Part shown: positions 1,013 to 58,632 of the stretch, piece after piece
Layout: every line of letters begins with the position of its first letter
Numbering within the stretch: the first letter of the stretch is position 1
DNA from: Elusimicrobiota bacterium
Lineage (GTDB): Bacteria > Elusimicrobiota > Endomicrobiia > Endomicrobiales > JBDRNC01
Reading direction: 5' to 3'
Length of the DNA stretch: 64,000 bases
Assembly (NCBI GenBank): GCA_043811535.1
Contig: JBDRNC010000023.1
Span: 2,216 to 66,215, forward strand
Translations under genes and position numbers: made by a program
The notes under the pieces: model-generated
What the model saw: the letters and a program-made list of their open reading frames with translations, nothing else
What the model was told of the DNA's origin: nothing
Database searches by the model: none

Positions 1013-1048
1013 TTAGAAAGCGGCAACTTGGTCCACCTACGCCCCGAA

Positions 1049-2155
1049 ATGACACAAAATAAATCAAACCTTCTTCAGGTATCATTCCTTATAGCGTGCG
1101 GCAGCGCTCTGCAGTTGGCGGAAGCCTTCATCCCTTTTCCGCTGCCCGGCATGCGCATTGGACTGGCGAACATAAGCACGGTTCTTGGCCTTATCCTGTT
1201 CGGCCCGGCCGCCGCATTTGAAATAGCGCTATTCCGCCCTATTATAACGAGCCTTACGAACGGCACATTTCTGATGCCCGGGCTGTATTTCAGTTTTTTC
1301 GGATCCATCACAAGCTTCGCGGTGATGGCTGTTATTTTCAGCGCTACAAAAAGGAACAAAATATTCTCGCTTGCGGGAATAAGCGTCATGGGGGCGATAA
1401 CCCACAACATCACCCAACTGCTCCTCGCTCGGTACTGGCTCATTCCTCACGCGGGGGTCCTGGCTTTCGCTCCCATCCTTGTCATAACAGGATTGATCGG
1501 GGGATATCTGGTCGGCTGGGCCAGCGAATATATCTACAAAAAGATCAACGAAGCAAAATTATCCTTTGGAAAACTTGCACCGTCCGGCGCGCGCTCGGTC
1601 AAGAAAGGGACGCTTATTCTAGCCGACAAGCTCAAGATCCTTGCGGCATTCGGCATGGTCATAAGCACAATATTTTTGAAAACCCCGTACGCTTATGTTG
1701 TGCTGCTTTTCGTTGTACTGATACTTATTATCGCGTCCGGGCAGCAGGTATCGCTTATTTTCAAAAGAGTATTCACTCTTTGGGCTGTTATCATTTTCAG
1801 TTTTTTCCTGCCCGTTGTATTCACGCAGGGCGGCAAAGTTTTGCTCTATCTTCCATTCATAAAAGTCACAGTCCCGGGCGTTATTGAAGGGATTATATTT
1901 GTATTGCGGCTTGTATTTCTAATAATGATCAGTATCTGGATAGGCGTAACCCGGCCCGAAAAACTGTCCCAGGAGTTGGAATGGCTTCTATCTCCCTTGA
2001 AAATCTTTAAGATTCCCGTAGACAGGATACCGCGGCTGACATCGCTCTCGCTGTCCTTTCTGCCGCTGATATGGGAACGGCTCAATAAAGTCAAACCCAA
2101 GAAACTGACGCTTGTGCTTGACGCGCTTGTCGGATTGTTTATTGGATTGGAATAA
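1049..2155 (+). CDS. Polytopic membrane protein: Gx-transporter (heptaprenyl-diphosphate-synthase-component-I-like) domain fused to an EcfT/CbiQ-like transmembrane domain
   Basis: The N-half 'PLPGMRIGLANISTVLGLILFG...LTNGTF' resembles the Gx transporter family. The C-half 'LSPLKIFKIPVDRIPRLTSLSLSFLPLIWERL' resembles the EcfT coupling region. Start placed at ATG 1049. Confidence 0.45.
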   Translation: MTQNKSNLLQVSFLIACGSALQLAEAFIPFPLPGMRIGLANISTVLGLILFGPAAAFEIALFRPIITSLTNGTFLMPGLYFSFFGSITSFAVMAVIFSATKRNKIFSLAGISVMGAITHNITQLLLARYWLIPHAGVLAFAPILVITGLIGGYLVGWASEYIYKKINEAKLSFGKLAPSGARSVKKGTLILADKLKILAAFGMVISTIFLKTPYAYVVLLFVVLILIIASGQQVSLIFKRVFTLWAVIIFSFFLPVVFTQGGKVLLYLPFIKVTVPGVIEGIIFVLRLVFLIMISIWIGVTRPEKLSQELEWLLSPLKIFKIPVDRIPRLTSLSLSFLPLIWERLNKVKPKKLTLVLDALVGLFIGLE

Positions 2156-2899: not shown

Positions 2900-3760
2900 A
2901 TGGAAAAAAATATTCTCGGCATCGATTCAAATAGCTCAAAAATGGTGGGTCTTGTCCTGCCTAAAAATACTATTGAGAACCTGGATTCCTTCCTGACGGA
3001 AACGATCAAATACCTCTCGCTTGCGCTGGAATGCAGGGGATACAACATGGCGCTTTTCAACGAAGAGAACTACGACCTCGAGAGATTTGAAAACCTTTAT
3101 GATAATAAGTTAATAGGCGGGATAATAATGTTCAGCCCTTCGCTGAACGATGCGGAAAGGGCAGCGATCCTCGGTAAAAGCAGGATACCATCGGCCGTAT
3201 TGTTTTCTCATTACGACAAGATAGATTCATTTACATGCGATAACGAGCATGGCGGGTATATGGCAACAATGTTTCTGCTTGAAAAAGGCAGAAGACGGAT
3301 AGCGTTCATCCACGGCTCTCCCACATGGACGGATTCCTACGACAGGTTCCTCGGATACAAAAAGGCCTTGGCAGAATCGGGCGCGGAATTCCGCCCGGAA
3401 CTTGTGAAGAACGCCTATTATGATTATTACACGGCGAAAGTAGTCGTTCAGGAGTTCATGGCGCAAGGCAATAAACCCGACGCTATTTTCGCTGCGAACG
3501 ACAAAATGGCAATGGGGGCCATTCAGGGCATCAGACAGAAAGGACTGGAAGTCCCGAAAGATGTATCGGTGGTGGGTTATGACGATGTCAAGGAAAACGA
3601 GTATGCCGAACTGCCGCTCACCACTCTCGTCCAGCCCATCAAGGACATCTGCGATAATCTGGCGGAACGGATGGCGTCAAAGATAGAAGGGAAAATCAAA
3701 AATGAGAAGCCGGTTCTCGTGGCGCTGAAACCGAAACTGATAGTGAGGGAATCGGCATAA
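2900..3760 (+). CDS. LacI/PBP1-type sugar-binding domain protein lacking the N-terminal HTH
   Basis: 'VGLVLP', 'AIFAANDKMAMGAIQ' and 'VSVVGYDD' are classic LacI-family core motifs. Only 15 residues precede the first core strand. Confidence 0.7.
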   Translation: MEKNILGIDSNSSKMVGLVLPKNTIENLDSFLTETIKYLSLALECRGYNMALFNEENYDLERFENLYDNKLIGGIIMFSPSLNDAERAAILGKSRIPSAVLFSHYDKIDSFTCDNEHGGYMATMFLLEKGRRRIAFIHGSPTWTDSYDRFLGYKKALAESGAEFRPELVKNAYYDYYTAKVVVQEFMAQGNKPDAIFAANDKMAMGAIQGIRQKGLEVPKDVSVVGYDDVKENEYAELPLTTLVQPIKDICDNLAERMASKIEGKIKNEKPVLVALKPKLIVRESA

Positions 3761-3764
3761 ATGC

Positions 3765-3842
3765 GACAGTGACCGGTGACTAGTCGCTTGTGGCTAGTCA
3801 AGGCAGTTACAGGACACTGGTCACAGGTCACTAGTCACTGTA
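3765..3842. repeat. Hairpin repeat, family E ('gtcactagtcac' words) between convergent genes
   Basis: cagtgaccggtgac ... gtcacaggtcactagtcactg. It contains the apbE stop codon (3835-3837). Half-copies occur at 34240-34258 and 37971-38000. Confidence 0.6.
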
Positions 3843-4818
3843 TTAAATCAACATCAATCTTCCTGATTTTCACTTCCTTCTTTAATCCTTCGCTTACAAA
3901 AACATTCCCCTGATTATCTATGATAATCGCTTCCGACCCCGGGAATTTCTTCACTAATTCCATGCCCTTTTCGGGACCCAGGATAAAAGCTGAAAGCGCG
4001 AGCGCGTTTGAAAGAGCGCATTGCGGAGCTACTACAGTCGCGCCTATTGAATTTGCCGCCGGATAGCCTGTCCTGACGTCAAATATGTGGTGGTATCTCT
4101 TCCCGCCTTTAACGAAATACCTTTCGTAATCGCCCGAGGTTGAGACGGCGCAATTTCTTACTTTTATCACCGCAAGCACGCCGTCTTTTTTTCTCGGATG
4201 TTGTATGCCTACCTTCCAGGTCTTGCCGCCAGCCGCCCTTATGTCCCCGCCCGCGTTGACAAGAACCGAGTACGCTCCGGTATCCATCAGCGACTTGGCC
4301 GCCTTGTCGGCTATGTGGCCTTTCGCCATGTTGCTGAGATCCAAGCGCATTCCCTTTTTTTGGAGAAACACATTTGTACCGTCCAGTTTGACTTGCCTGT
4401 AGTCCACAAACTCGAGCGCCTTTAAAATATCCTCTTTCGCAGGAACAGACGGATTCGCGGAATTAACGTCCCAAAGTTTTACAAGCGGGAAAACCGTCGG
4501 ATCGTAAATTCCGCAGGTTATCCGGGATATTTCCATGGCCTTTCTCATAACGGCCGCCGTTTCACTTGAAACTCTCACAGCCGATTCCCCTGCGAGCCTG
4601 GATATTTCAGAAAGGTCGCTTCCCGGGGAATACGGGCTCAGTAATTTCTCAAGCCTGCCGATTTCATTCCACGCCGGTTCCATATTGAAACCGCCGCCGC
4701 ACACAACCTTTATCTCAACGCGCGTGCTCATCATATCCCTTATTTCGACAAGGTTCTTGCGGCGGGAACATGATGCCAGCATAACACAACAGAGTGCCAG
4801 GGCAAGTTGTTTATTCAT
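3835..4818 (-). CDS. apbE: FAD:protein FMN transferase ApbE (lipoprotein)
   Basis: Lipobox 'VMLASCS', plus 'STSGDYERYF' and 'HHIFDVRTGYP'. Start placed at the internal Met (MNKQLAL). Confidence 0.85.
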   Translation of the reverse strand: MNKQLALALCCVMLASCSRRKNLVEIRDMMSTRVEIKVVCGGGFNMEPAWNEIGRLEKLLSPYSPGSDLSEISRLAGESAVRVSSETAAVMRKAMEISRITCGIYDPTVFPLVKLWDVNSANPSVPAKEDILKALEFVDYRQVKLDGTNVFLQKKGMRLDLSNMAKGHIADKAAKSLMDTGAYSVLVNAGGDIRAAGGKTWKVGIQHPRKKDGVLAVIKVRNCAVSTSGDYERYFVKGGKRYHHIFDVRTGYPAANSIGATVVAPQCALSNALALSAFILGPEKGMELVKKFPGSEAIIIDNQGNVFVSEGLKKEVKIRKIDVDLIQ

Positions 4819-6115
4819 TCTTAAAGGCGCCATGAACGGCTCCGGTTGCAGGTTTTAATCCTATAGCGCGATTGAAAAGCTCCATGTTGGAACAGCTCTC
4901 TACGGGCTTAACTTCCTTTAAATGAGGGATGAACACGAAACGGATAATGAACCTAAGAAGCCCGGATATCAGGAATATCGTCAACAGACTGCTTCCGTTT
5001 ATTTTAGGAAGGTAGGCTATCATCGTGCCTCCCATAGCGGCTCCCAGAAAGACACCGAGCCCGTTTATCAGGTTGAAATAAGCAAAACACCTGACGCGTT
5101 TTTCCTCGCTGGCGGCGTCAAAGATAAAGTTGCTCGCCGCAAGGTTAAAACCGGCCCACGCGAAGCCGGATATCACCTGTATGGATATAAGGTAGAGCAG
5201 GTTATGCGAAAACAGCCACATGACCGGGATTACTGGTATGATCAGGCTTGTCAGGCTGATGACGCGTATGCAGCCGAGCTTGTCCGTGTAATGCCCCCAG
5301 CGCTGGAAACTCAGGAGCATCGAAATCATCACGACCGTATTGATGACCGTGAATGACAAGTAGTCGAGTTTTAATTCGCGGAGCATGTACACAGAGAAAA
5401 AGGGGGCCGCCATGTTTACGGCCAGACTCATGCAGCCGACGAAAAACACGAATTTGGCGAAATTGCTTTTCTTTGCACGGGCAATAAAATCGTAAAAAGA
5501 GAAGTACGAGTCCGGCTTCATGCGCAAGGGTATCTCGTGCATCTTGTTTATGAAATACCATGAGACGAGCCTGGATATCATGGCCACGGCGAATATTATC
5601 GTGAATCCGGTGATACTTTCTTTCGGGAAAAGGTAAAGGATATACCCCGCGACGAATGTCATGATAAGAGTTATCGTCCCGTGTATTTTGTACCGCCATG
5701 AAAAATATTGTCCCCGCTTGTCTTTTGGAAGGTACTGAGTCATCATGCTTACCCATGCCGGGCCGGCCAGCGAGCCAAAAAGCACGTAGAGCATCACCGC
5801 GCCGATTAGGTAAGGCACCGGGACGCCAAATATATAAGGAATAAGCAGTATGACCAGCCACATGGATGCCTGCGCGAATATCCAGATAAACAACATCCGC
5901 TTGCGCCCAGTCTTTTCGGTCCAATCCGGTATCTTTATCTGAAAAAGCGAGGAAACAAGCCCGGGCAGGGAGCTCAGGAGACCTATCTGCATGTTGCTCG
6001 CTTTCAGCGCGATAGCGAATGGACTGATGAAGACATCGCCGAACCCAAGCATCATCGCCGCAAACGAGCCGTCCCAGAATGAATATTTCAAACTATTGCG
6101 GATCTTGTTTCTCAT
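4811..6115 (-). CDS. MFS transporter
   Basis: About 12 TM segments with an MFS-like repeat structure. The track's N-terminal 39 residues are translated from a family-A repeat, so the start is set at ATG 6115. Confidence 0.7.
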   Translation of the reverse strand: MRNKIRNSLKYSFWDGSFAAMMLGFGDVFISPFAIALKASNMQIGLLSSLPGLVSSLFQIKIPDWTEKTGRKRMLFIWIFAQASMWLVILLIPYIFGVPVPYLIGAVMLYVLFGSLAGPAWVSMMTQYLPKDKRGQYFSWRYKIHGTITLIMTFVAGYILYLFPKESITGFTIIFAVAMISRLVSWYFINKMHEIPLRMKPDSYFSFYDFIARAKKSNFAKFVFFVGCMSLAVNMAAPFFSVYMLRELKLDYLSFTVINTVVMISMLLSFQRWGHYTDKLGCIRVISLTSLIIPVIPVMWLFSHNLLYLISIQVISGFAWAGFNLAASNFIFDAASEEKRVRCFAYFNLINGLGVFLGAAMGGTMIAYLPKINGSSLLTIFLISGLLRFIIRFVFIPHLKEVKPVESCSNMELFNRAIGLKPATGAVHGAFKNE

Positions 6116-6124
6116 ATTCGCGAT

Positions 6125-6153
6125 ATTGTAATTAATAAATGCCGTGTTGTCAA
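6125..6153 (-). promoter_or_regulatory. Sigma70-type promoter for MFS-apbE (TTGACA-17-TACAAT)
   Basis: On the minus strand, -35 is at 6153-6148 and -10 at 6130-6125. Only 9 nt separate the -10 from the ATG, so the mRNA is near-leaderless. Confidence 0.55.
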
Positions 6154-6155
6154 TA

Positions 6156-6254
6156 AATTGTGTAATGTTTGATGTTGAATGTGTAATGAAACCGCCTTTT
6201 TTGATACAACTGATGTCTTTTTCATTACTCATTACACATTACACTTAACACAAT
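6156..6254. repeat. Hairpin repeat, family A, inverted copy, between divergent promoters
   Basis: Arms at 6156-6190 and 6221-6254. The loop 'gtatcaaaa' also resembles the copy at 2804-2834 in reverse orientation. Confidence 0.85.
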
Positions 6255-6265
6255 ACTCTCGTTCA

Positions 6266-6294
6266 TTGACAAAGGAAGGCATTTCGGGTATAAT
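6266..6294 (+). promoter_or_regulatory. Consensus sigma70 promoter for rnfC (TTGACA-17-TATAAT)
   Basis: TTGACA at 6266-6271, a 17-nt spacer, and TATAAT at 6289-6294, about 40 nt upstream of ATG 6335. Confidence 0.7.
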
Positions 6295-6334
6295 TTACTT
6301 CAATAATCATTCATTTCTGAATTGTTTCGTAATC

Positions 6335-7654
6335 ATGGCCAGAATCAATAATTTCAAAGGCGGCATATTTCTTCGCGGGGAGAAGAGCACTGCGAAACTT
6401 GGCATTGAAACAATGCCGGTTCCCAGAAAAGTCGTCCTGCATTTAAGCCAGCACGCAGGCCTGCCTTCCAGTCCCGTAGTAAAAAAAGGCAGCTATGTGT
6501 TTTCCGGACAGCTTGTTGCCGAGGCGGGCGGGAACGTTTCATCACCCCTGCATTCCTCGATTTCTGGCACGGTCAGAGAAATAACGGAGTGGACGCATCC
6601 CGTTACCGGTTTGCCGGGCGAATCTATAATCGTAGAATCCGACGGCCGTGACGACCGTTCTCCGGATAACAAGAACTTTCATGAATATTTCAGGTTTTCG
6701 CCGGCCGAGATCATCAATGTAGTCAGGGACGCGGGAGTCGTGGGCCTTGGCGGCGGCGCTTTCCCGACGCATATCAAGCTTTCTCTTCATAAAAAGGCCG
6801 ATATCCGCACGCTGATAATCAACGGCGCGGAGAGCGAGCCGTACCTGTCCTCCGATGACAGGCTGATGCGGGAGTATTCCAAGGATATTATTGAAGGCGC
6901 CAAGATAATGATGTACGTCCTTGACGCAGTGAAAGCGATAATAGCCGTCGAGGACAATAAGCCGCAGGCGGTTAAAGAACTCGCGGAAATCATTTTCAAC
7001 GAACCCAATATAGACCTGGCCGTTTTGAAAACCAGGTACCCTCAAGGCTCTGAGAAACAACTTGTAAAGACAATTCTTAATAAAGAGGTGCCTTCCAGCG
7101 GCCTTCCTTTTAACGTCGGGGCCGTTGTCCAGAACGTAGCGACCGCGTACGCCGTCGCCAAAGCGGTAAAAGAAGGGGAAAACCTGACAAGCCGCGTTAT
7201 AACGGTAGCCGGCAAGGGAATACGCGAGCCTAAAAACATCAGGGTCAGGATAGGCACACTGCTTGCAGATATCGCGGAATTCTGCGGGGGCGCGACCGCT
7301 GATCTTGGACAGGTTATTATGGGCGGACCGATGACGGGCGTAGTCCAGCCGACGCTCAAGGTGCCGGTCCTCAAATGCACGACCGGCGTGCTGTTCTTCT
7401 CGAAACAGGAAACTATTGACAGGAATTTCAGCGATTGTTTCCGGTGCGGGAAATGCTCCAGAGTATGTCCGATGGGGCTTCTCCCGGGCATGTTGAGCGC
7501 CCATATAGAAAAAGGGAGGGTCAGTGAGGCGGAGAAATATTATCCTTCTGATTGCATTGAATGCGGGTGCTGCGCTTACGTGTGCCCGGCCCGCAGGCCG
7601 ATAGTGGAACAGATACGAACAGTTAAACAACAAATACTAAACACTAAACTCTAA
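6335..7654 (+). CDS. rnfC: Rnf electron-transport complex subunit C
   Basis: 'GLGGGAFPTHIKL', 'INGAESEPYLSSD', and two clusters 'CFRCGKCSRVCP' and 'CIECGCCAYVCP'. Start at MARINNFKGG. The last 8 codons and the stop lie inside a family-B repeat. Confidence 0.9.
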   Translation: MARINNFKGGIFLRGEKSTAKLGIETMPVPRKVVLHLSQHAGLPSSPVVKKGSYVFSGQLVAEAGGNVSSPLHSSISGTVREITEWTHPVTGLPGESIIVESDGRDDRSPDNKNFHEYFRFSPAEIINVVRDAGVVGLGGGAFPTHIKLSLHKKADIRTLIINGAESEPYLSSDDRLMREYSKDIIEGAKIMMYVLDAVKAIIAVEDNKPQAVKELAEIIFNEPNIDLAVLKTRYPQGSEKQLVKTILNKEVPSSGLPFNVGAVVQNVATAYAVAKAVKEGENLTSRVITVAGKGIREPKNIRVRIGTLLADIAEFCGGATADLGQVIMGGPMTGVVQPTLKVPVLKCTTGVLFFSKQETIDRNFSDCFRCGKCSRVCPMGLLPGMLSAHIEKGRVSEAEKYYPSDCIECGCCAYVCPARRPIVEQIRTVKQQILNTKL

Positions 7655-7769
7655 AAACTAAATAAGCTCAAAACACAAAGGATAAAACACAAACACTGCC
7701 GTTATATTTGAAATTTGAATTTGTATTTTTGGTTTTATTTAGTGTTTAGTATTTTGTGTTTAGTATTTG
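7631..7769. repeat. Hairpin repeat, family B ('tactaaacac' words)
   Basis: caaatactaaacac pairs with gtgtttagtatttg. About 100 nt closely match 63757-63871. Confidence 0.8.
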
Positions 7770-7794
7770 CAAATCAGCATAGGGAATTATCAAC

Positions 7795-8736
7795 ATGGTT
7801 GAAAAAAGTAATCTGTTGGTTGCCTCTTCTCCTCACATCCATTCCGGCGACACGGTGCGGAAAGTGATGGCGAACGTCATGATAGCATTGCTTCCGGCAA
7901 CCGCGGCGTCGGTTTACTACTTTGGCCTGCCGGCGGCGATAGTCATAGCCGTGTCCGTCTTTTCATGCGTGCTCGCCGAATACGTCTGGAAAAAAGCGTT
8001 TAAACTTACCGTTAACATAGACAATCTGAGCGCCGCGGTGACGGGGCTTCTTCTCGGGCTTACGCTCCCGCCGGGGCTCCCGTGGTGGATGGTAGTCATA
8101 GGTTCGGTTTTCGCAGTGGCTGCCGGCAGACATTCGTTCGGCGCGCTAAGCCGGAATATTCTGAATCCGGCGCTGGCCGGCAGGGCATTTCTGCAGATAG
8201 TATGGCCCGGGGCGATGATTACCTGGACAAAGCCGTTTGAAACCGTGACCGCGGCAACGCCCCTGACAATAAGCAAACATTCGCTTCCTGAAGCCCTGCC
8301 AACATATTTTGACATGCTTATCGGAAACAGGACCGGCTCGCTCGGAGAGACATGCATTATCGCTTTGCTGGCGGGAGCGGTCTTCCTTTTAATAAGGAAA
8401 GACATTTTTCTTACCGTTCCTATCGCGTTTATCGGAACGGTCGCTGCCGGGGCCGCCTTATTTGGAGAGGATCCCATTTTTCACGTGCTCGGGGGAGGAC
8501 TTGTGCTGGGCGCGTTCTTCATGGCGACGGACCCGATAACGTCGCCCGTCCCGCGGGCCGGAAAGATCATTTTCGGTGTTGGGTGCGGAACGCTGACCAT
8601 TCTCATGCGCGTCAAAGGATGGTATTCAGAAGGAGTCTGCTTTTCGATACTCGCGATGAACCTTATCGTCCCGCTGCTTGATAAATCGATAATTCCGGGG
8701 CGTTTCGGCGGGCAGAAAGGGGCGGCCGATGCTTGA
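7795..8736 (+). CDS. rnfD: Rnf electron-transport complex subunit D
   Basis: 'SSPHIHSGD', 'TAATPL' (a flavinylation-type Thr motif) and 'FFMATDPITSP'. Confidence 0.88.
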   Translation: MVEKSNLLVASSPHIHSGDTVRKVMANVMIALLPATAASVYYFGLPAAIVIAVSVFSCVLAEYVWKKAFKLTVNIDNLSAAVTGLLLGLTLPPGLPWWMVVIGSVFAVAAGRHSFGALSRNILNPALAGRAFLQIVWPGAMITWTKPFETVTAATPLTISKHSLPEALPTYFDMLIGNRTGSLGETCIIALLAGAVFLLIRKDIFLTVPIAFIGTVAAGAALFGEDPIFHVLGGGLVLGAFFMATDPITSPVPRAGKIIFGVGCGTLTILMRVKGWYSEGVCFSILAMNLIVPLLDKSIIPGRFGGQKGAADA

Positions 8737-9784
8737 ATTCAGTCTGATAGCCATAGTAGCGCTTGTGCTTGTATTGCCGGTGACCGTGCGTTTCATCGAA
8801 CATAATCTGGAACTGTTTCTCCTTGCGATGGGTGCGCTGTCGGTCACATTTTCGCATTTCCTGGGAGAAGAAAAACTTTGGACGCTTCGCCTGATAGAAG
8901 AAGCTCTGGTCGAACCTGTAGCGATAACCGCGGCGGTGGCCGTATTCGGCCTGCTTGTTTTTCTTTTCAGGAAAAAGCTAGTCGATTCTATAATAAAAAT
9001 CGAGCATAAACTCGGCTCAAAACTATTCTGTTTCGCGCTCATAACTGTTCTGGGAATAACATCAAGCATGATTACGGCAATAATGGCGGCTATAATACTT
9101 TCGGAAGTAGTTTCCTCTCTAAGGTTCAGCCGTGATTTTGAAGTAAAACTTGTCGTTCTCGGGTGTTTCTCCATCGGATTGGGCGCGGTCCTCACTCCGA
9201 TCGGCGAACCGCTGTCAACGATCGCCGTTTCAAAGCTGAAAGGAGCGCCGTTCCATGCCGATTTCTTTTTTCTGCTGAGAAACCTGGGATGGTATGTCAT
9301 TCCCGGTGTAATCGCTACGGGAATCCTCGGCGCGATAATAGAACCCTCGGTCAAGGAAGGGAGGGCTAAAGACACCCTTAAAGAAAAGGAAAAGGAAAGT
9401 TTTTCAGGGATCTTTATGCGCGCCGGAAAGGTCTATGTTTTTATATCCGCTCTGATACTGCTGGGAGCAGGATTTAAGCCAATTATTGACAAGTACATAA
9501 TCAGTCTATCCAGCCACTGGCTGTACTGGATAAATATAATTTCCGCGGTAATGGATAATGCAACGCTTACAGCCGCGGAAATAAGCCCCCAGATGTCTCT
9601 CGGCCAGATAAAATACATCCTGATGGGTCTTCTGGTAGCCGGCGGCATGCTTATACCGGGCAACATCCCGAATATCATATCAGCAAGCAAACTCGGTATA
9701 ACCAGCAAGGAATGGGCGAAGATAGGCCTGCCGCTGGGCTTTGCGGCAATGGTCGTCTATTTCCTGATTTTTCTTGTCATATGA
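8729..9784 (+). CDS. Polytopic permease of the ion-transporter superfamily (DUF1646/ArsB-NhaD-like)
   Basis: About 10-11 TM segments. Two re-entrant-type motifs, 'LTPIGEPLS' and 'LIPGNIPNII'. The start overlaps the rnfD stop by 8 nt (ATGCTTGA). Confidence 0.5.
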   Translation: MLEFSLIAIVALVLVLPVTVRFIEHNLELFLLAMGALSVTFSHFLGEEKLWTLRLIEEALVEPVAITAAVAVFGLLVFLFRKKLVDSIIKIEHKLGSKLFCFALITVLGITSSMITAIMAAIILSEVVSSLRFSRDFEVKLVVLGCFSIGLGAVLTPIGEPLSTIAVSKLKGAPFHADFFFLLRNLGWYVIPGVIATGILGAIIEPSVKEGRAKDTLKEKEKESFSGIFMRAGKVYVFISALILLGAGFKPIIDKYIISLSSHWLYWINIISAVMDNATLTAAEISPQMSLGQIKYILMGLLVAGGMLIPGNIPNIISASKLGITSKEWAKIGLPLGFAAMVVYFLIFLVI

Positions 9785-9900
9785 CGGCAGTAAACCGCAG
9801 ACCGAATATAGCAGGCATGACACAAGACAATGAAGTCATTTGTTCCAGTCTTTACCGGTATTCTGTCTGCTGTTTTCTGTTTACTGTTGTTATAAAATGC

Positions 9901-9929
9901 TTGAAATTTATAAAATAAATTGATATAAT
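9901..9929 (+). promoter_or_regulatory. Sigma70 promoter (TTGAAA-17-TGaTATAAT) for the rpsB-tsf cluster
   Basis: -35 at 9901-9906, extended -10 TG at 9921-9922, and TATAAT at 9924-9929. Confidence 0.65.
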
Positions 9930-9977: not shown

Positions 9978-10010
9978 ATCCCGGGATTCTGTCCGGGGTC
10001 TGTTTTTTTC
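9978..10010 (+). terminator. Terminator-like hairpin plus T7 run inside the rpsB leader (possible attenuator)
   Basis: atcccgg / ccggggt forms a 7-bp stem with an 8-nt loop, followed by ctgttttttt. Confidence 0.4.
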
Positions 10011-10120
10011 TGCCCAAACAAATTGGCGCTGGAGAGAACGGCCGGATGGAAGATGAACGGGATGGAGGCCCAGGAAAACCCGCAGGGTTTCCGGGAAAAA
10101 CCAAAGGAGGCAGTAGCAGT

Positions 10121-10932: not shown

Positions 10933-11535
10933 ATGAGCCCGACCAATGAAATGATACAGAAACTCCGCGAGATGACCGGCACGGGGATAATGGACTGTAA
11001 AAAAGCCCTTGTCGAAAGCGGAGACGATATAGAAAAAGCCGTTAAATACCTTAGGGAAAAAGGCATCGCCACTGCGGTGAAGAAAGCCGAGCGCTCGGCA
11101 AAAGAAGGGCTTGTCGGCTCATACATTCACGCGGGAGGAAAGCTCGGTGTGCTTGTGGAAGTCAACTGCGAAACCGATTTCGTCGCGAGAACCGAGGAAT
11201 TCCAGAGCTTTGTCAAGGAAATAGCGATGCAAATAGCAGCAGCAAACCCGCTGTACGTAAGGAAAGAAGATGTGCCGAAGGAACTGCTGGAGAAGGAAAA
11301 AGAAATTTACCAGGCGCAGCTGAAACAGGAAGGCAAGCCCGAACAAGTGTGGGAAAAGATCATCGCCGGCAAGATTGAAAAATTCTACACGCAGGTGTGT
11401 CTGATCGAGCAGCCGTACATACGCGACGCTTCCGGCAAAGAAAAGGTTAAAGACCTTGTAACTAACGCCGTCGCCAAGATCGGCGAAAATATAGTCGTCC
11501 GCAGGTTCTCGAGATTCAGGGTAGGGGAAGAGTAA
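10933..11535 (+). CDS. tsf: Elongation factor Ts
   Basis: 'IQKLREMTGTGIMDCKKAL' UBA-like N-terminus. Sits directly after rpsB. Confidence 0.93.
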   Translation: MSPTNEMIQKLREMTGTGIMDCKKALVESGDDIEKAVKYLREKGIATAVKKAERSAKEGLVGSYIHAGGKLGVLVEVNCETDFVARTEEFQSFVKEIAMQIAAANPLYVRKEDVPKELLEKEKEIYQAQLKQEGKPEQVWEKIIAGKIEKFYTQVCLIEQPYIRDASGKEKVKDLVTNAVAKIGENIVVRRFSRFRVGEE

Positions 11536-11538
11536 AAT

Positions 11539-11606
11539 AAATGGCTAAACGGTTAAATGGCTATATGGCTAAAGTCGTTAGCCATTTGACAATTTAGCAA
11601 TTTGGC
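11539..11606. repeat. Hairpin repeat, family C ('ggctaaatgg' words)
   Basis: atggctaa (11565-11572) pairs with ttagccat (11578-11585), with additional outer word pairings. Confidence 0.7.
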
Positions 11607-11615
11607 AATATAACT

Positions 11616-16353: not shown

Positions 16354-17424
16354 ATGATTACCATTTTAGGTTACGAAATAACAATTCTGCAGATTTTCAC
16401 CGTTGTTTTCGGCATAGGGCTTCTTATTTTCGTGCACGAGCTGGGGCATTTCCTGATGGCCAAATATTTCAGGCTGAGGGTTGAGAAATTCGCCTTCGGC
16501 TTCGGCCCGGAGCTTATTGGCTTTACACGCGGCGAAACGCGTTATTCGATATGCGCGTTCCCTCTGGGCGGTATGGTGAAACTGCCGGGCGAAGATATAG
16601 ATTCGGCCACGGGTTCCCCGGACGAATTCATGTCGCAGGCCTGGTATAAACGGCTTTTGATAGCTTTTTTCGGCCCGATGATGAATTATATTCTGGCGGT
16701 TCTGTTGTTTGCCGGTGTTGTTTATCTGTGGGGAGTGCAAAAGCCGGTACCTGACCCTATCATAGGACAGGTCATTGAAGGCAGGCCGGCTCAAAAAGCC
16801 GGAATACTCACGGGAGACAGGATCATCAGCGTCAACGCGGTGCAGGTAAAATCCTGGGAAGAGATGGCCTCGTACATATATAAACATCCGGAGGAAAATC
16901 TCAGATTCATAATTGAAAGACAGGAAAAAAGGATCAAGTTGGACATAAGGACAGCAAAAGATTCGAAAACAGGCTATGGTATCATCGGTGTTACGCCCCG
17001 GATGGAATACGAGAAGTACGGATTGGCGGGTTCGGTCAATCTTGGGGTAAAACTTGCCGTGTTTCAGTCGGTTTACACCCTCAAATACCTGGGAACTAAG
17101 CTGATCAGGTGGGAAAAACCTGAACTGGCCGGCCCGATAGGCGTCATACAGATACTCGCGAAGGCCGCCAAGATGGGAATTGACAACATTCTTTACCTGC
17201 TCGGCGTAATATCTGTTGCGCTGGGGCTTTTCAACCTGCTGCCGATACCCCTCGTGGACGGCGGGCACATAACGATAGCCGTGATAGAGTGTGTAACGCG
17301 GAAACCAATAAACAAAAAACTCGTGCAGCTGTCGAACTTTGTAGGCCTAGGGATTATAATATTCATTTTCATATTCGCAACGTACAGCGATATAGCGAGA
17401 ATAGTGCTGGACATGAAAAAATAG
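16354..17424 (+). CDS. rseP: RIP (site-2) zinc metalloprotease RseP
   Basis: 'HELGHFLMAK', a PDZ region, and 'NLLPIPLVDGGH'. Confidence 0.92.
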   Translation: MITILGYEITILQIFTVVFGIGLLIFVHELGHFLMAKYFRLRVEKFAFGFGPELIGFTRGETRYSICAFPLGGMVKLPGEDIDSATGSPDEFMSQAWYKRLLIAFFGPMMNYILAVLLFAGVVYLWGVQKPVPDPIIGQVIEGRPAQKAGILTGDRIISVNAVQVKSWEEMASYIYKHPEENLRFIIERQEKRIKLDIRTAKDSKTGYGIIGVTPRMEYEKYGLAGSVNLGVKLAVFQSVYTLKYLGTKLIRWEKPELAGPIGVIQILAKAAKMGIDNILYLLGVISVALGLFNLLPIPLVDGGHITIAVIECVTRKPINKKLVQLSNFVGLGIIIFIFIFATYSDIARIVLDMKK

Positions 17425-17499
17425 TGTAATGTGGAATGTGTGATGTGTAATGAAGTTTATTAAAGAGGATTATTCTTTACACATTAAACATAACACATT
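17425..17499. repeat. Hairpin repeat, family A
   Basis: tgtaatgtggaatgtgtgatgtgtaatgaag ... ctttacacattaaacataacacatt. Confidence 0.75.
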
Positions 17500-17512
17500 T
17501 TAAGGAATTTAA

Positions 17513-28402: not shown

Positions 28403-28474
28403 GGAAATGGCTAAATGGCTAAACGGATATATGGTTAAAGACGTTAGCCATTTAACAATATAACCATTTAACCG
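28403..28474. repeat. Hairpin repeat, family C
   Basis: ggaaatggctaaatggctaaacgg...ttagccatttaacaatataaccatttaaccg. Confidence 0.7.
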
Positions 28475-28489
28475 TGTATTATTACTACT

Positions 28490-29879: not shown

Positions 29880-29883
29880 GAAA

Positions 29884-30008
29884 TATGGTCAAATAGCTGT
29901 ATTGTCAAATGGCCAAAAACCAACTGCATGGTTAAATTGTTAAACGGCTATATGGCTGTATTATTAAGACATAAGCAATTGAGCCATTTAACCATTTAGC
30001 AATTTAAT
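29884..30008. repeat. Hairpin repeat, family C (longer copy)
   Basis: atggttaaat (29928-29937) pairs with atttaaccat (29987-29996). The inner atggct/agccat also pair. Confidence 0.65.
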
Positions 30009-30009
30009 T

Positions 30010-33689: not shown

Positions 33690-33698
33690 CGGCGCATA

Positions 33699-33800
33699 GA
33701 GTAATGTTTAAAGTGTAATGTGTGATGAAAACAGCAATTATTCAATGTTTGGATGCAGTAATAACTCAATTCATCACACATTCAACATAGCACATTACAC
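33699..33800. repeat. Hairpin repeat, family A
   Basis: The inner 13 bp, aatgtgtgatgaa / ttcatcacacatt, pair perfectly. Arms at 33699-33729 and 33770-33800. Confidence 0.8.
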
Positions 33801-33877
33801 AGTTCCTTTTGTCATTTACTTTTCAGCTGGAATTTGATAAAATAACGCATCATTTCTAATAAAGGAGAATACGTAAA

Positions 33878-47748: not shown

Positions 47749-48771
47749 ATGAAGATAACGATAGACGACATCGCGAAACAGGCAAGGGTATCCAAAAGAA
47801 CGGTATCCCGCGTATTAAACAACTCTCCTCACGTTAACAAATCCACTAGAAAAACCATAGAGAATATTATCAAGCGCAACGGTTTTAAGGTTAATCTCCT
47901 GGCAAAGGGCCTTTCCGGAGGCACAGGGCTTAATCTTATAGGCATCCTTGCGGGCGTCGAGGCCCTTTACGGCAAATCCTATTTCATAAAAATCATCAAC
48001 AGCATAGAAAATCATTTAAAAGTCAAGGGGTTTAACGCGTTGATAATCAACATTTCAGAAGACCTGTCGGATCCGGGCAATAAGAGCAAGATTGAAATGC
48101 TGCACGGCCTCTTCAATAATAAAGTTATTTGCGGATTGGTTGTTTTGGGCCCCGTTATAAATGACCGGCGAATCAAATACCTGAAAAGAAACGGCATCAA
48201 AGGCATTGTGATAGGCAGTAAAACCGCCGTTAGAGGTTTCGGCTATATAGATTCCGATAACAGGCAGGGAACGCGCGATATGATCGAACATCTGATAGGC
48301 TGCGGCCATAGAAAGATCGCTTTTATAAACGGGCCGTCCGATCTGACTTCTTCAATAGAAAGAAAAGCGGCTTTTTGCGAAACTCTTGAAAAAAACCAGT
48401 TGGAGACCAGGGATGAATACATTGTTAACGGAGATTATACAAGGGGCGGCGGGATGTCGGCGGCCATGCAGCTGCTGATGCTTAAAGTCCGGCCTACAGT
48501 CATAGTTGCCGCCAACGACGACATGGCGCTGGGCGCTTATGACGGTGCAAGGTCTCTCGGTATAAGCATACCGGAAGATATTTCCGTATGCGGCTTTGAC
48601 GACGTTGACGGCGCCGCCCTGGCCCAGCCGCCTCTGACAACGGTATCCCATTCTTATGACAAGATGGGGGAAAAAGCGGCATCCTGCATAGTCGAAAACC
48701 GTTTCAATTTGAAGATAAACCTTCCGGTAACTCTTGTTACCAGGGGTTCCGTATCAAAACTAAACAAATGA
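47749..48771 (+). CDS. LacI-family transcriptional regulator
   Basis: HTH 'ITIDDIAKQARVSKRTVSRVLNN' and the PBP core 'VIVAANDDMALGAYDG...ISVCGFDD'. Confidence 0.9.
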   Translation: MKITIDDIAKQARVSKRTVSRVLNNSPHVNKSTRKTIENIIKRNGFKVNLLAKGLSGGTGLNLIGILAGVEALYGKSYFIKIINSIENHLKVKGFNALIINISEDLSDPGNKSKIEMLHGLFNNKVICGLVVLGPVINDRRIKYLKRNGIKGIVIGSKTAVRGFGYIDSDNRQGTRDMIEHLIGCGHRKIAFINGPSDLTSSIERKAAFCETLEKNQLETRDEYIVNGDYTRGGGMSAAMQLLMLKVRPTVIVAANDDMALGAYDGARSLGISIPEDISVCGFDDVDGAALAQPPLTTVSHSYDKMGEKAASCIVENRFNLKINLPVTLVTRGSVSKLNK

Positions 48772-51512
48772 ATAGGTTAATCGGGCGAATTATTTCATCT
48801 CTGTTTATCATATCAACCGCCGCAGTGGTACTTTCAGCCGCGGCGACGTGGGATCTGCGCAAGGTCGCTTCGCTGTGCAAGGCTTCATCCTCGGAAGGGG
48901 AGAAACCGGTGGGTTTGGCCTTTGACGCTGACACTTGGACCCGGTGGGCCTCCGAATTCAAGGACAACCAGTGGATTTTTCTTGACCTGTCAGAAGTCCG
49001 CGATATAACAAGGATCAATATTATCTGGGAAGCTGCGTACGCGAAAGAATACAGGATAGAACTCTCGGACGACTTTAAGAACTGGAAAGAACTCGTTTAT
49101 GTAAAGGACGGCAAAGGCAAACCGGACAACTTTCTGCCGGAAGGCGGAGTCAGGGCGAGATATATCCGCCTCAACTGCATCAAAAGGGCCACGCAATGGG
49201 GTTTTTCAGTGTATGAATTCGGCGTGTACGGGCCCATGGATGGAGTTGAGCCGGAGCACGGCGGACTGATAGTGCCGGCTTCTAAGATAACCATCTATGA
49301 CCGCGACTGGAAGACGCTTGACCCGTATTTCGCGGCGCAGCTGGCCGCGGACCCTCCCGATTCAAAGAACATGACGGACGACGAGTTCCTCAATCTTATA
49401 GAAAAACGCACATTTGACTATTTCTGGTGCGAAGTAAGCACCGCCACCTTCTGGGTCGTGGACAGCCAGACTTGGAAAACGCACACGTCCATCGCGGGTA
49501 TCGGCTTTCAGCTCGGGGCGTACGTCGCCGGCCATTACAGGGAATACAGGCCGAAGAAAGAAATCTACGACCGCGTAGAAAAACTTCTGGATAACTGCTG
49601 GGACGACCCCAATGACCCTAATGACGTATGCCTGGAGAGCCATTCCGGCTGGGCTTACCACTGGGTCAATATACTGACCGGTAAGTGGGAAGGCCAGGAG
49701 CACGTCTGCACGCACGATTCAATAGCGTACCTGAGCGGAGTGATACTTGCCAAACACTATTTCGCGGGAACGAAGGCCGGCGACATAGCCGCCAAGATAC
49801 TGGACTCGGTTGACTGGAAATGGATAATACACGACGGTTTCAACAAGCGCTTTGTCTCCAACGCCTACGCCTACACCTACGACCCGATGTGCGGAGGCGA
49901 GGTTATTTTTTACGACGGCATGAAGTTCGATTACATCCTGCCTATAGGCGGGATAAAATCCAGCGTCCCGCCTGTATACTGGCACAATTTCGCACAGACA
50001 TTCCCGTGGGAGGACTACAAGGGCGGATACTGGAGGATTGAGCGGCCAGCCATATGGATACACCAATGGGACAATCAGTTCTTCGATTTCAGGTACATGA
50101 AAGACGACTACGCGGATTACTATCAGAACTCGGTTGAAGCCGCGCTGGCCAACAGGCAATGGTGCATCGACAACAAACTCTACGACGAAAGCCTCTGGGG
50201 CGTCGGGCCCTCATACGGCCCCAATGACGACGGGGGATTCACCTACAAGGATTTCGGAGCGCCGCAGGACAAACTGTGTTTCCAGAAAGGCGGCGACAAC
50301 GACGGCACGATTACCCCGAACGCCGCGCTCGGTTCCATCGTCTTCACCCCGAAGGAGTCGATAATGGCCGCAAGGACAATGTACGACAAATATAAAGATA
50401 AGATATGGGAAAAATACGGCTTTACGGACGCCTTCAATCCGAACAAATCGTGGTACTCGGACAGGTATATCTCGATTGACCAGGGGACCATCATCATGAG
50501 CATAGAGAACTACCGCTCGGGCATAATCTGGAAGAATTACGCGAAAGAAGAAGTGGTCTGGAACGGGCTGGACAGGTGCGGGTTCAAAGGCGTTATAGAC
50601 AATTTCGATGAATCAGAACATTCCCCGCCTTACGGCGTATGGAGCGACCCTGATAGCGGAAAATATTACACTTACGTGAAAACTGATGAGAACGTTAAGG
50701 AAGCCGGACATTCCCTCAAGGTCACATACGGCCTGAAAGGTTCGGCGGACAAGCACTTTTCAGTTTCACCGCTGCTTAAGGATTTTTCCAGGTACAAGTA
50801 CCTGTCGTTCTGGGTTAACGGCACGGAAGATATCGCCGTAAGCATCGCCGGCGGAGCGGAGCGGCCCCTTGAACATTCCGCGACAGTCAAATCTTTCTCG
50901 GGATGGAAGAAGGAGTATTTCAAGCTTCCAGCGGAAAGCATTTCAAAAAATGTTGATAAGCTGAATTTCACGGTCAAGAACGCCGGGAAAGGCGCGCTGT
51001 ATTTGGATGATATAACGCTTGTCAACGCGATCGCCGAGGCCGAACCTGTCCTGCTGATAGACGACATGGAGGAGAGCGAAGACCTTAACACGCCGATGAC
51101 ATCGGTCAGCTGCGATATCGACACCTCCGAGGAAAAGAAGCAGGAAGGGAATAAATCGCTGAAGATTGTTTTTGACGGCGCCGCAAAGGGGACGAAGCCG
51201 TGCGTGAAGATCACGCCGCCGTTCAAGGACTGGCGCAAGTGTCACTCCATTTCAATGTGGGTGTACGGGAAAACAAAGATACTGGTGAAACTGAAAGATT
51301 CCGGCGGCCACTCGTTCGAAACGGGCAAGGCGCAGATATCCGCGAAAGACGGCTGGAACCACCTCTTCTTCAATATACAGGCAAACCTGAATCCGGGTAA
51401 CTTCTGGGAACAGAAATACGATAAAGAAAACATAAGGGAAATGCAGATATTCCTGGAACCCGAAAAGGCCTCCAAACCTGTTTACATTGATTCGCTTATG
51501 CTTACGGAATAA
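48768..51512 (+). CDS. Secreted discoidin (F5/8 type C) + glucoamylase-like PF10091/GH144-like (endo-beta-1,2-glucanase-like) catalytic domain + two C-terminal CBM-like domains
   Basis: 'TRWASEFKDNQWIFLDL...YRIELSDDFKNW' is the discoidin module. 'RTFDYFWCE...SIAGIGFQLGAY' and 'YGFTDAFNP...ISIDQGTIIMSIENYRSG' form the GH144-like core. Confidence 0.5.
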   Translation: MNRLIGRIISSLFIISTAAVVLSAAATWDLRKVASLCKASSSEGEKPVGLAFDADTWTRWASEFKDNQWIFLDLSEVRDITRINIIWEAAYAKEYRIELSDDFKNWKELVYVKDGKGKPDNFLPEGGVRARYIRLNCIKRATQWGFSVYEFGVYGPMDGVEPEHGGLIVPASKITIYDRDWKTLDPYFAAQLAADPPDSKNMTDDEFLNLIEKRTFDYFWCEVSTATFWVVDSQTWKTHTSIAGIGFQLGAYVAGHYREYRPKKEIYDRVEKLLDNCWDDPNDPNDVCLESHSGWAYHWVNILTGKWEGQEHVCTHDSIAYLSGVILAKHYFAGTKAGDIAAKILDSVDWKWIIHDGFNKRFVSNAYAYTYDPMCGGEVIFYDGMKFDYILPIGGIKSSVPPVYWHNFAQTFPWEDYKGGYWRIERPAIWIHQWDNQFFDFRYMKDDYADYYQNSVEAALANRQWCIDNKLYDESLWGVGPSYGPNDDGGFTYKDFGAPQDKLCFQKGGDNDGTITPNAALGSIVFTPKESIMAARTMYDKYKDKIWEKYGFTDAFNPNKSWYSDRYISIDQGTIIMSIENYRSGIIWKNYAKEEVVWNGLDRCGFKGVIDNFDESEHSPPYGVWSDPDSGKYYTYVKTDENVKEAGHSLKVTYGLKGSADKHFSVSPLLKDFSRYKYLSFWVNGTEDIAVSIAGGAERPLEHSATVKSFSGWKKEYFKLPAESISKNVDKLNFTVKNAGKGALYLDDITLVNAIAEAEPVLLIDDMEESEDLNTPMTSVSCDIDTSEEKKQEGNKSLKIVFDGAAKGTKPCVKITPPFKDWRKCHSISMWVYGKTKILVKLKDSGGHSFETGKAQISAKDGWNHLFFNIQANLNPGNFWEQKYDKENIREMQIFLEPEKASKPVYIDSLMLTE

Positions 51513-51516
51513 AACG

Positions 51517-53109
51517 ATGCGAAAACTTGTCTTTGCTTTCGCTCTTGCTTTTGCCGCTGTTTTTTCGGGCACCTGCGCGGTTTTAGCCACCGGCGACGGC
51601 GTTTATTACGAAGTATTCGTCCGCTCTTTCTACGATTCCGACGGCGACGGCATCGGCGATTTCAAGGGCTTGACGATGAAACTCGATTATCTCAATGACG
51701 GAAACCCGGCCACGGATACCGACCTAGGTATTAAAGGTATATGGCTCATGCCAGTGCTTGAATCGCCCAGTTACCACGGCTATGACGTGACTGATTACTA
51801 CAAGATAGAGAAAGAGTACGGGACGGAACAGGATTTTGACGCCTTTATAGCCGCCGCGCACAAAAGGGGCATTAAGGTTATCATGGATCTGGTATTAAAC
51901 CATACATCGTCGGAAAACAAGTGGTTCGTAGATCCGATGAAACGCGATTGGTACGTATGGAGAAATACCGTTCCCGCGGAATGGACCAAGCCGTGGGGCG
52001 GGGGCCGCCCGGAAGAGGTATGGCATAAGAAGAACGGAGCTTACTACTACGGAGCCTTCGGCGGGCACATGCCCGAATTGAATTACCAGAATCCGGATGT
52101 CGTCAAACAGATGGAAGACGTTATAAAATTCTGGCTTGACAGGGGCGTTGACGGCTTCCGGCTTGACGCCGTCAGGTATCTCGTGGAAACAGGCGGGGGG
52201 CCGGCCAGGCAGGCGGACACTCCGGAGACGCACGATATCTTAAAAACGCTTTCGAAATACGCGAGGAGCATTAATAAGGATTGTTTTATTGTAGGCGAGG
52301 TCTGGGCCGGCAACGATACCGGCGCGAAGTATTACGGCGGCGGAGAAGAACTCGGGCATGTATTTAATTTTGATCTTGCCTCAGCGATAATCAACTCGGT
52401 AAAATCCAATAATTACTCGGAGATAGAGAATGTCATGAACAGGGCCGCGGGTTATCCTGTTCCAACGGATTTTTACTGTCCATTCCTTGCCAATCACGAC
52501 CAGAACAGGATAGCGTCGGAATTTAAGGGTGACATCCCTAGGATGAAACTCGCCACTAGCATTCTACTGTCAATGAAAGGGATTCCTTTCATGTACTACG
52601 GCGAAGAGGTCGGGATGGCCGGAAGCGGCCCGCATGAGAGCATACGCACGCCCATGCAGTGGGATGTTTCTGCAAACGCGGGTTTTACCAAAGGAAAGCC
52701 GTGGGAAAGGATGCAGGATTACTATTCCGGACAGAACGTGGCGGCGCAGGCTAAAAACCGCGGATCGCTGCTCAACCACTACAAAACACTTATATCTGTA
52801 AGGAACAGCCGCTCGGAGTTTTTCACACATGAAAGAATATACATAAAGAACAACGTTGCCAAGGTATATTCGTACATGTATACGGATGGTTCGTCAGGAT
52901 TACTGTTCGCGCACAATTTTGACGGCGCGCTTTCCAGGGAAATAACGCTGTACATGGAAGAGTCAGGCATGAAAGGCGGGAAATGCGCTTTAGTTAACCT
53001 GATTAGCGGAAAAATACAAAATGTGCCGCTTCCGCACCTTCAGATAGACCCGCTGGCGCCCTACGAAACAAGAATCTATCAAATTGACATCTTAAAGGGA
53101 GAAAAATGA
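51517..53109 (+). CDS. GH13 alpha-amylase-family enzyme (secreted)
   Basis: 'DLVLNHTS', 'GVDGFRLDAVRYL', 'FIVGEVW' and 'FLANHDQNR' are GH13 regions I-IV. Confidence 0.88.
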   Translation: MRKLVFAFALAFAAVFSGTCAVLATGDGVYYEVFVRSFYDSDGDGIGDFKGLTMKLDYLNDGNPATDTDLGIKGIWLMPVLESPSYHGYDVTDYYKIEKEYGTEQDFDAFIAAAHKRGIKVIMDLVLNHTSSENKWFVDPMKRDWYVWRNTVPAEWTKPWGGGRPEEVWHKKNGAYYYGAFGGHMPELNYQNPDVVKQMEDVIKFWLDRGVDGFRLDAVRYLVETGGGPARQADTPETHDILKTLSKYARSINKDCFIVGEVWAGNDTGAKYYGGGEELGHVFNFDLASAIINSVKSNNYSEIENVMNRAAGYPVPTDFYCPFLANHDQNRIASEFKGDIPRMKLATSILLSMKGIPFMYYGEEVGMAGSGPHESIRTPMQWDVSANAGFTKGKPWERMQDYYSGQNVAAQAKNRGSLLNHYKTLISVRNSRSEFFTHERIYIKNNVAKVYSYMYTDGSSGLLFAHNFDGALSREITLYMEESGMKGGKCALVNLISGKIQNVPLPHLQIDPLAPYETRIYQIDILKGEK

Positions 53110-55859: not shown

Positions 55860-55862
55860 CTT

Positions 55863-58607: not shown

Positions 58608-58632
58608 GCGCCGCTATTTGATATTAGACGTA

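Follow-up and report, generated by a model that had tools for sequence, protein, structure and literature searches.

What do RnfC and RnfD do at a locus where the genes for the other four Rnf subunits do not follow them? Rnf and Nqr are regarded as machines that need all six of their subunits, and which subunit carries the ion, RnfD/NqrB or RnfA/E, is debated. The question is raised by a 64-kb stretch of Elusimicrobiota DNA, nearly all of its 66-kb contig and called the window below, in which rnfC (6335-7654, plus strand) and rnfD (7795-8736, plus strand) are followed by a gene for an ion-transporter (IT)-superfamily permease that overlaps the end of rnfD, and then by rpsB. The initial annotation of this DNA, made from its letters alone, had put forward the permease as a possible alternative membrane partner for RnfCD. 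We find that the rnfCD-only operon, seen complete in three related genomes, lies within a block that recurs in four, on contigs of differing extent, and whose genes encode the repressor Rex, an EetB::EcfT fusion protein, a cyclic-nucleotide-binding-domain (cNMP) protein, a LacI-type sugar-binding-domain protein (PBP), the flavin transferase ApbE and an MFS transporter. On balance we think it probable that this is a conserved, expressed-looking operon set in a flavinylation-supporting block, and that the permease, a DUF1646 protein, is a passenger in a variable slot.

Judged by their sequences, RnfC and RnfD of the window are bona fide, full-length subunits with all cofactor motifs. RnfC, the NADH/FMN-binding subunit, scores 514.6 bits against TIGR01945 (cut-off 246) as compared with 210 bits against the PrdC profile (cut-off 490). 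It gives full-length alignments with 7ZC6_C (8e-111) and 9ERI_C, both RnfCs of solved Rnf complexes, and the solved complexes whose RnfC it matches end to end are those of C. tetanomorphum, A. woodii and A. vinelandii. GLGGGAFPTH and both CxxCxxCxxxCP motifs, for two [4Fe-4S] clusters, can be read in its translation. The longest rnfC open reading frame (ORF) opens at 6179 and reads through a consensus promoter, TTGACA-17-TATAAT (6266-6294, plus strand), which matches at 12/12 positions and is conserved, including part of the spacer, in two of the related loci described below (L005 and L097). The real start is the ATG at 6335, 41 nt 3' of this promoter; here, as for the MFS gene and rpsB, the true start was set by promoters, homologue lengths and alignments. 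RnfD, the membrane subunit of 313 residues, scores 283 bits against TIGR01946 (cut-off 207) and 349 bits against PF03116, which is its sole domain, with no fusion to a PF00175 NqrF-type NAD-binding domain. It matches 7ZC6_D (6e-81) and 9ERI_D (1e-72) over the full length, and its VTAATPL motif, which contains T155, sits opposite VTTATPL in both, as expected of the conserved flavinylation site. FFMATDPITSP is found as well, and the best match in a named genome is from Endomicrobiia (51%). The initial annotation had recognised rnfC by its promoter, GLGGGAFPTH and the two cysteine clusters and rnfD by TAATPL and MATDPITSP; both identifications stand, with only the start of rnfC corrected.

The other four subunits were sought throughout the window. 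A tblastn search with RnfG, RnfE, RnfA and RnfB of a related full operon gave nothing in the 64 kb at E<=1e-5, and no FMN_bind, Rnf-Nqr or RnfB domain was found by Pfam in 28 window ORFs (from the block and from 21-36 kb and 46-64 kb); the ORFs at 36.4-48.8 kb were read as translations only, and those at 10-21 kb were covered by reading and by synteny with a related contig (P0122). The remaining content of the window consists of housekeeping genes and a glycoside-hydrolase cluster. The next element after the permease gene is the rpsB promoter (TTGAAA-17-TATAAT with an upstream TG, 11/12 match; 9901-9929, plus strand), which forms the right boundary of the locus and is followed by rpsB-tsf-pyrH-frr, so that the reported lack of rnfG, rnfE, rnfA and rnfB behind the permease is confirmed and now extends to the whole window. 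How unusual is this? Our control was a set of ordinary RnfDs (41-50% identity), the best 80 of the matches listed in a metagenome scan with a four-sequence RnfD alignment. rnfG/E/A adjoin rnfD in all 60 of the 60 unrelated rnfD loci that have at least 1.2 kb of downstream DNA, and DUF1646 is found in none of 85 unrelated rnfD loci. A scan of GTDB genomes with narrow RnfD peptide patterns returned five relatives at 44-45% identity, all of them with full operons.

The closest relatives give a different picture. In a collection of 5.8 billion proteins the nearest RnfDs are only three, at 60-66% identity. Three clade loci can be followed through rnfD, namely the window, L005 (P0124) and the P0122 contig, and a fourth, L097, is cut inside rnfC; the contigs are ENA ERZ27297473 k141_2876691, Logan SRR22388160_219141, a 27,395-bp contig of JGI 3300075153 and the 66-kb contig of the window. 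On the P0122 contig (RnfD 66% identical) a cut ORF at the position of ApbE and the MFS gene are followed, divergently, by rnfC, rnfD, rpsB, tsf, pyrH and frr, and the 204 nt that separate rnfD from rpsB hold no called gene. In L005 the order is NusG_II, EetB::CbiQ, cNMP, PBP, two inserted genes, ApbE and MFS, and then an AAA_14 gene, RnfC, RnfD (60%), a 247-aa protein and rpsB. L097, which was found by a search with the MFS protein, has Rex, a 59-aa ORF, NusG_II, EetB::CbiQ, cNMP, PBP, PBP, ApbE, MFS and a divergent RnfC, which is 58% identical over its first 292 residues, where the contig ends. Neither L005 nor the P0122 contig shows rnfG, rnfE, rnfA or rnfB 3' of rnfD. Window and L005 proteins are 82% identical for RpsB, 76% for cNMP, 73% for MFS, 64% for EetB::CbiQ, 62% for RnfC, 60% for RnfD, 56% for PBP and 48% for ApbE. 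Across the clade the RnfC orthologues are 58-62% and the RnfD orthologues 60-66% identical, with intact frames. To go by these sequences, the rnfCD-only locus is no assembly accident and no one-off, and an rnfCD-only operon conserved together with genes that support flavinylation is real.

The slot between rnfD and rpsB, for its part, holds DUF1646 in the window, an alpha/beta-hydrolase-like gene in L005 and nothing on the P0122 contig. Since its contents differ among relatives, the slot is variable and the 8-nt coupling of the permease gene to rnfD is lineage-specific. The 247-aa gene after rnfD in L005 was considered as a substitute for RnfG and rejected: it has a GFSAGA nucleophile-elbow, is alpha/beta-hydrolase-like and is unrelated to DUF1646 or RnfG. 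Also in L005, an AAA_14/DUF4143 ATPase gene (7051-8382 of that locus) is inserted between the MFS and rnfC promoters, from which it follows that the divergent intergenic region tolerates insertions.

In a neighbour-joining tree the four clade RnfDs form one monophyletic group, whose sister is P0125 (locus L096, with rnfG and rnfE); P0127 comes next and then L007, which has a full rnfCDGEAB operon. On these sequences the most likely history is one loss of rnfGEAB from the rnfCD locus, in the ancestor of the clade and out of an ancestral rnfCDGEAB operon. Constraint on what was kept was evaluated at columns that are at least 90% conserved, 63 of them from 89 canonical RnfDs and 77 from 57 canonical RnfCs. 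The clade RnfDs deviate at 1-5 of the 63 columns (window 5), where canonical proteins have a mean of 1.3, a standard deviation of 1.2 and a maximum of 4; the clade RnfCs deviate at 6-8 of the 77 (window 6), where the canonical mean is 1.5, the standard deviation 1.6 and the maximum 7. The changes that the clade shares are conservative (A141G, T172S and I369F in RnfC; I271M in RnfD). A154, T155, P156 and L157 are invariant, and hence the flavinylation threonine is kept, in all four RnfDs. By their sequence conservation rnfC and rnfD look clearly like functional genes.

What is the permease, then, at the end of the transcript? Its gene (8729-9784, plus strand) overlaps the stop of rnfD by 8 nt, ATGCTTGA at 8729-8736, with AAAGGGG just 5', and the overlap is as the initial annotation had described it. 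The annotation had also suggested a check against DUF1646, and the 351-aa protein is indeed a full-length member of this family (PF07854, 376 bits, profile positions 3-347 of 347), that is, a predicted Na+/Li+ (H+) cation transporter. The exact sequence has no record in the look-up, and the best match in a named genome is from Endomicrobiales (65%). A sequence search of the PDB gave no match, and a fold search was used instead. The AlphaFold (AF2) model, built from 62 homologues (pLDDT 85, pTM 0.82), was matched by Foldseek, at the level of the fold, to VcINDY, Pho90, NaDC3, NaS1 and ArsB (TM 0.50-0.57, probability 1.00). As modelled, the permease has an elevator-type IT-superfamily fold, and the matches to Na+-coupled DASS carriers (VcINDY, NaDC3 and NaS1), Pho90 and ArsB make the label of ion-transporter-superfamily permease a correct one. 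No redox motif is present in the protein.

The Na+-I riboswitch is named after DUF1646, and the family occurs occasionally behind nhaA-I (Li+/Na+-II) riboswitches too; its members are predicted Na+/H+ antiporter-type carriers, none of which has been characterised biochemically (PMC9337991, PMC9646797). In one related locus (L001) a DUF1646 orthologue with 66% identity to the window protein is preceded, at a distance of 130 nt, by an nhaA-I riboswitch (9813-9868; RF03057, 45.1 bits, gathering score 37). The window gene thus shares with the DUF1646 riboswitch regulons a full-length member with the IT-superfamily fold and a close orthologue directly behind an nhaA-I element, but differs in that no riboswitch accompanies it (an Rfam scan of the window gave no match, so neither Na+-I nor nhaA-I is here) and in that it overlaps rnfD, which ties its expression to the rnfCD transcript. 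DUF1646 orthologues at 57-68% identity are placed away from rnf in seven loci. In five (L002, L003, L004, L094 and L095, of which L003 is cut there) the gene lies 3' of MTHFR, and the one in L001 is flanked by neither rnf nor MTHFR. The seventh, the P0009 contig, reads BirA, PBP, Rex, DUF1646, rpsB, tsf and onward, with no rnf, apbE, MFS or EetB within the 14 kb shown. P0009 and P0122 come from one sample and each has rpsB-tsf-pyrH-frr, so they represent two different related genomes; the presence of Rex-DUF1646-rpsB without EetB, ApbE, MFS and RnfCD in the 14 kb shown may mean that the block is gained or lost as a unit. Around the MTHFR arrangement, a DUF5981 gene is seen 5' of MTHFR in L002, L094 and L095 and an HMGL-like gene 3' of DUF1646 in L004, L094 and L095.

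The orthologues thus act as stand-alone genes for alkali-cation transport, and an nhaA-I riboswitch precedes one of them. Because of the riboswitch links and the IT-superfamily fold, the sequence and the model point to DUF1646 as an autonomous alkali-cation (Na+/Li+) transporter and not a redox partner. Among the loci seen, it appears fused to the end of the rnfCD transcript only in the window genome. The annotation had wished to see whether the rnfC-rnfD-permease junction recurs in relatives; of the three nearest rnfCD loci, L005 and the P0122 contig lack it, and with orthologues placed elsewhere the notion of the coupled permease as an alternative membrane partner was not borne out. A role for the DUF1646 gene as a part of the RnfCD machine is not supported by the sequence comparisons.

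The other genes of the conserved block lie upstream of rnfC. ApbE (3835-4833, minus strand; PF02424, 269 bits) is an FAD:protein FMN transferase with the lipobox MLASC, a predicted lipoprotein and, on that basis, predicted to be extracytosolic. The MFS transporter gene (4811-6115, minus strand; PF07690) overlaps apbE by 23 nt; its longest ORF opens at 6232 and its true start is 6115. The two are transcribed divergently from rnfC, as had been noted, and apbE is now seen to belong to the conserved block. L005 and L097 have an ApbE orthologue 3' of the MFS gene, a position that the cut ORF, of 299 aa, takes on the P0122 contig. The MFS orthologues are 72-73% identical in L005 and L097 and 66% on the P0122 contig; a distant one (56%, L098) shows no linkage to apbE or rnf, and the best match in a named genome is from Endomicrobiales (59%). 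Further upstream a 375-aa protein (1028-2155, plus strand) joins an EetB-type domain (PF07456, 120 bits) to an EcfT/CbiQ-type domain (CbiQ, 28.9 bits against a profile cut-off of 25), with orthologues 64-69% identical in L005 and L097. EetB and the EcfT-like FmnA export FAD for ApbE-type flavinylation in Listeria, and eetB is often co-localised with apbE and Rnf (PMC9973259). By analogy, we predict that the fusion is an FAD exporter that supplies the periplasmic ApbE. ECF ATPase genes were noted neither among the scanned window ORFs nor near the fusion gene, and shared housekeeping EcfA/A' proteins encoded elsewhere are possible. RnfD is the only evident substrate of ApbE in the 64 kb at the level of sequence: FMN_bind domains are lacking from the scanned ORFs, and a search of all reading-frame segments of 80 aa or more gave no D..[ST]GA[ST] motif.

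The block is completed by three genes on the plus strand. The Rex redox-sensing repressor (118-750; NF003995, 240 bits) marks its left edge and is 80% identical and in the same position in L097. The cNMP protein, a stand-alone domain (2284-2778; PF00027, 80 bits), is 73-76% identical in L005 and L097. The PBP (2900-3760; Peripla_BP_3, 112 bits) has neither a helix-turn-helix (HTH) domain nor a signal peptide; its orthologues are 56-64% identical in L005 and L097, and it is duplicated in L097. As conserved block members, the cNMP protein and the HTH-less PBP may have a regulatory role. A NusG_II gene stands directly 5' of the EetB::EcfT fusion in L005 and L097.

How could such a system work? 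Electrons would pass from NADH to the FMN of RnfC, through its two [4Fe-4S] clusters and on to the flavins that the membrane subunit RnfD carries. ApbE, the divergently encoded periplasmic lipoprotein, would attach the outward-facing FMN at Thr155 of RnfD, with FAD delivered by the EetB::EcfT exporter encoded a few genes upstream, and Rex at the edge of the block may tie it to the NADH/NAD+ ratio. RnfCD would then be a one-way flavin wire from NADH to the periplasm, reducing a periplasmic acceptor, an assignment made by analogy that we put just short of an even chance. In a more elaborate version, a free-standing two-subunit ApbE-flavinylated wire may still move Na+ via RnfD, with the co-transcribed DUF1646 protein recycling Na+ in this lineage; we give this version somewhat less than an even chance.

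The strongest competitor of the wire is a split canonical Rnf, in which RnfC and RnfD serve a six-subunit ferredoxin:NAD+ oxidoreductase whose rnfG, rnfE, rnfA and rnfB (or a second operon) are unlinked, with DUF1646 unrelated to it. This is a quite serious possibility, if somewhat less than an even one. RnfD keeps 58-62 of the 63 canonical columns with no clade-wide loss, the subunits of solved complexes give full-length alignments with both proteins, and the nearest relatives have full Rnf operons. In Chlamydia the homologous nqr genes lie scattered over the genome, so operon splitting can occur. On the other hand, the genes are contiguous in 60 of 60 background loci, rnfGEAB were not found in about 125 kb of clade contigs (64 kb of the window, 13.7 of 19 kb for L005, 12.4 kb for L097 and 14.5 of 27 kb for P0122), and the block looks self-contained with its exporter, ApbE and promoters. 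We lean slightly to the flavin wire because a clean deletion is simpler than relocating four genes, because the block has its own exporter, transferase and promoters, and because the block is missing at the corresponding place in the genome with Rex-DUF1646-rpsB (P0009). Several points nevertheless weigh against the reading that we prefer. rnfGEAB, or a second complete rnf operon, may lie elsewhere in the genome, beyond the 64-kb window; RnfD is unrelaxed at conserved positions, as would be expected of a subunit at work in a full complex; the block shows neither a periplasmic acceptor nor an RnfG-like partner, and an RnfG-like subunit is part of the known reduced Nqr/Rnf-like systems. Matches to a Rex operator (TTGTGA-N6-TCACAA, up to 2 mismatches) number 3 in the window against 2.1 expected, and none is near the block or rnfC. 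The 8-nt overlap with its Shine-Dalgarno sequence would have DUF1646 co-expressed with rnfD, which may reflect a lineage-specific link, for example in Na+ handling. Finally, the comparison covers only four loci, all metagenomic, and one of them is cut inside rnfC.

Taken further, the overlap could be read as the sign of a new complex, in which the translationally coupled DUF1646 permease joins RnfCD, replaces RnfG/E/A/B as the membrane partner and couples NADH oxidation to ion transport. The stop/start overlap with a Shine-Dalgarno sequence and the ties of both Rnf and DUF1646 to Na+ biology speak for it, but the adjacency is absent from the other two rnfCD-only loci seen through rnfD, seven loci have DUF1646 orthologues without rnf, none of the 85 background rnfD loci has DUF1646, and the protein combines an elevator-type carrier fold with the lack of a redox motif. 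We regard such a complex as highly improbable. Still less credit can be given to a decaying remnant, that is, a functionless rnfCD left over from a deleted rnf operon. The absence of rnfGEAB from the locus would fit it, and RnfC is somewhat above the typical number of substitutions at conserved columns (6-8 of 77), but frames and all cofactor motifs are intact, the consensus promoter is conserved, and at least three genomes have kept orthologues, with identities as low as about 60%. The kept frames, motifs and conserved columns thus argue against decay.

The regulatory DNA of the locus combines conserved promoters with variable repeats. The MFS-apbE promoter, TTGACA-17-TACAAT (6125-6153, minus strand; 11/12 match), is conserved in L005 and L097, and so both divergent promoters are kept in the three loci with DNA (window, L005 and L097), while the palindromic repeats between them differ. 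In the window this space is taken by a palindromic intergenic repeat (6152-6256; families D4/D5, inverted repeats I2 and I19). The 140-nt spacer between rnfC and rnfD is taken up by a long AT-rich hairpin repeat (7631-7769, plus strand; inverted repeat I3 with arms of 43 nt), which has an RNA minimum free energy of -37.1 kcal/mol (z = -5.3) and a second copy at 63758-63870; the corresponding spacers measure only 38 nt (L005) and 5 nt (P0122 contig). At least three genome-specific families of AT-rich palindromic intergenic repeats, made of short reiterated words, can be distinguished, of GTGTAATG type, AAATACTAAACAC type and AAATGGCTAAA type. Their positions are 2765-2870, 6152-6256, 17416-17500 and 33691-33804; 7618-7770 and 63758-63870; and 11535-11611, 28405-28478 and 29883-30009. 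Relatives have other repeats at the same intergenic positions, and repeats common to L005 and L002 come to two short matches only. Between the rpsB promoter and the rpsB start at 10121 (the longest ORF opens at 10046), a terminator-like hairpin with a T-run at 9978-9999, without an Rfam match, suggests an rpsB leader or attenuator. Far downstream, a glycan-utilisation cluster at 47749-61526 encodes a LacI regulator, a glucoamylase-like protein, an alpha-amylase, two paralogous GH3 enzymes and another protein of about 930 aa, and each of its four large proteins opens with an F5/8 type C (discoidin) domain.

Should these genomes truly lack the other four genes, the locus would define a natural, evolutionarily stable RnfCD-only module. 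It would then be a minimal system for asking about transmembrane electron transfer by RnfCD alone, about Na+ translocation and about the acceptor of the outward-facing FMN, and would represent a new class among ApbE-dependent extracytosolic electron-transfer systems. If rnfGEAB are merely unlinked, it would be a rare split rnf operon of limited interest. A literature search for RnfCD-only, incomplete or partial Rnf found no description, and a survey of Elusimicrobia counted Rnf as present only at four or more of the six subunits (bioRxiv 10.1101/765248), a rule by which an rnfCD-only arrangement would have been overlooked.

Among known systems, canonical Rnf (C. tetanomorphum 7ZC6, A. woodii 9ERI) is similar in its full-length RnfC and RnfD homologues with NADH/FMN and two [4Fe-4S] clusters, in the motif of the flavinylated threonine, in an operon that begins with rnfC and in the association with apbE and eetB-type genes; the difference here is that rnfG, rnfE, rnfA and rnfB are seen at none of the three loci that run through rnfD. 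The flavinylation genes of Listeria (FmnB/ApbE, EetB and FmnA; PMC9973259) likewise place PF07456, an EcfT/CbiQ-like domain and ApbE beside a flavinylated redox protein of the membrane, whereas the present locus has the S-like and T-like parts fused into a single chain, lacks nearby ECF ATPase genes and belongs to a diderm of Elusimicrobiota type. The closest functional parallel to the flavin wire is found in the two-subunit Nqr/Rnf-like complexes, for which one-way electron transfer from cytosolic NAD(P)H to extracytosolic flavin has been proposed (PMC8238504, Meheust et al., 2021; PMC10979944, Huang et al., 2024). They, too, are reduced RnfD-based systems encoded beside apbE. However, in those complexes the RnfD-like domain is fused to an NqrF-type PF00175 domain, an RnfG-like subunit is present and the flavinylation threonine is lost, while in the locus described here no RnfG-like gene is in the block, a separate true RnfC gives the NADH site and the threonine is kept.

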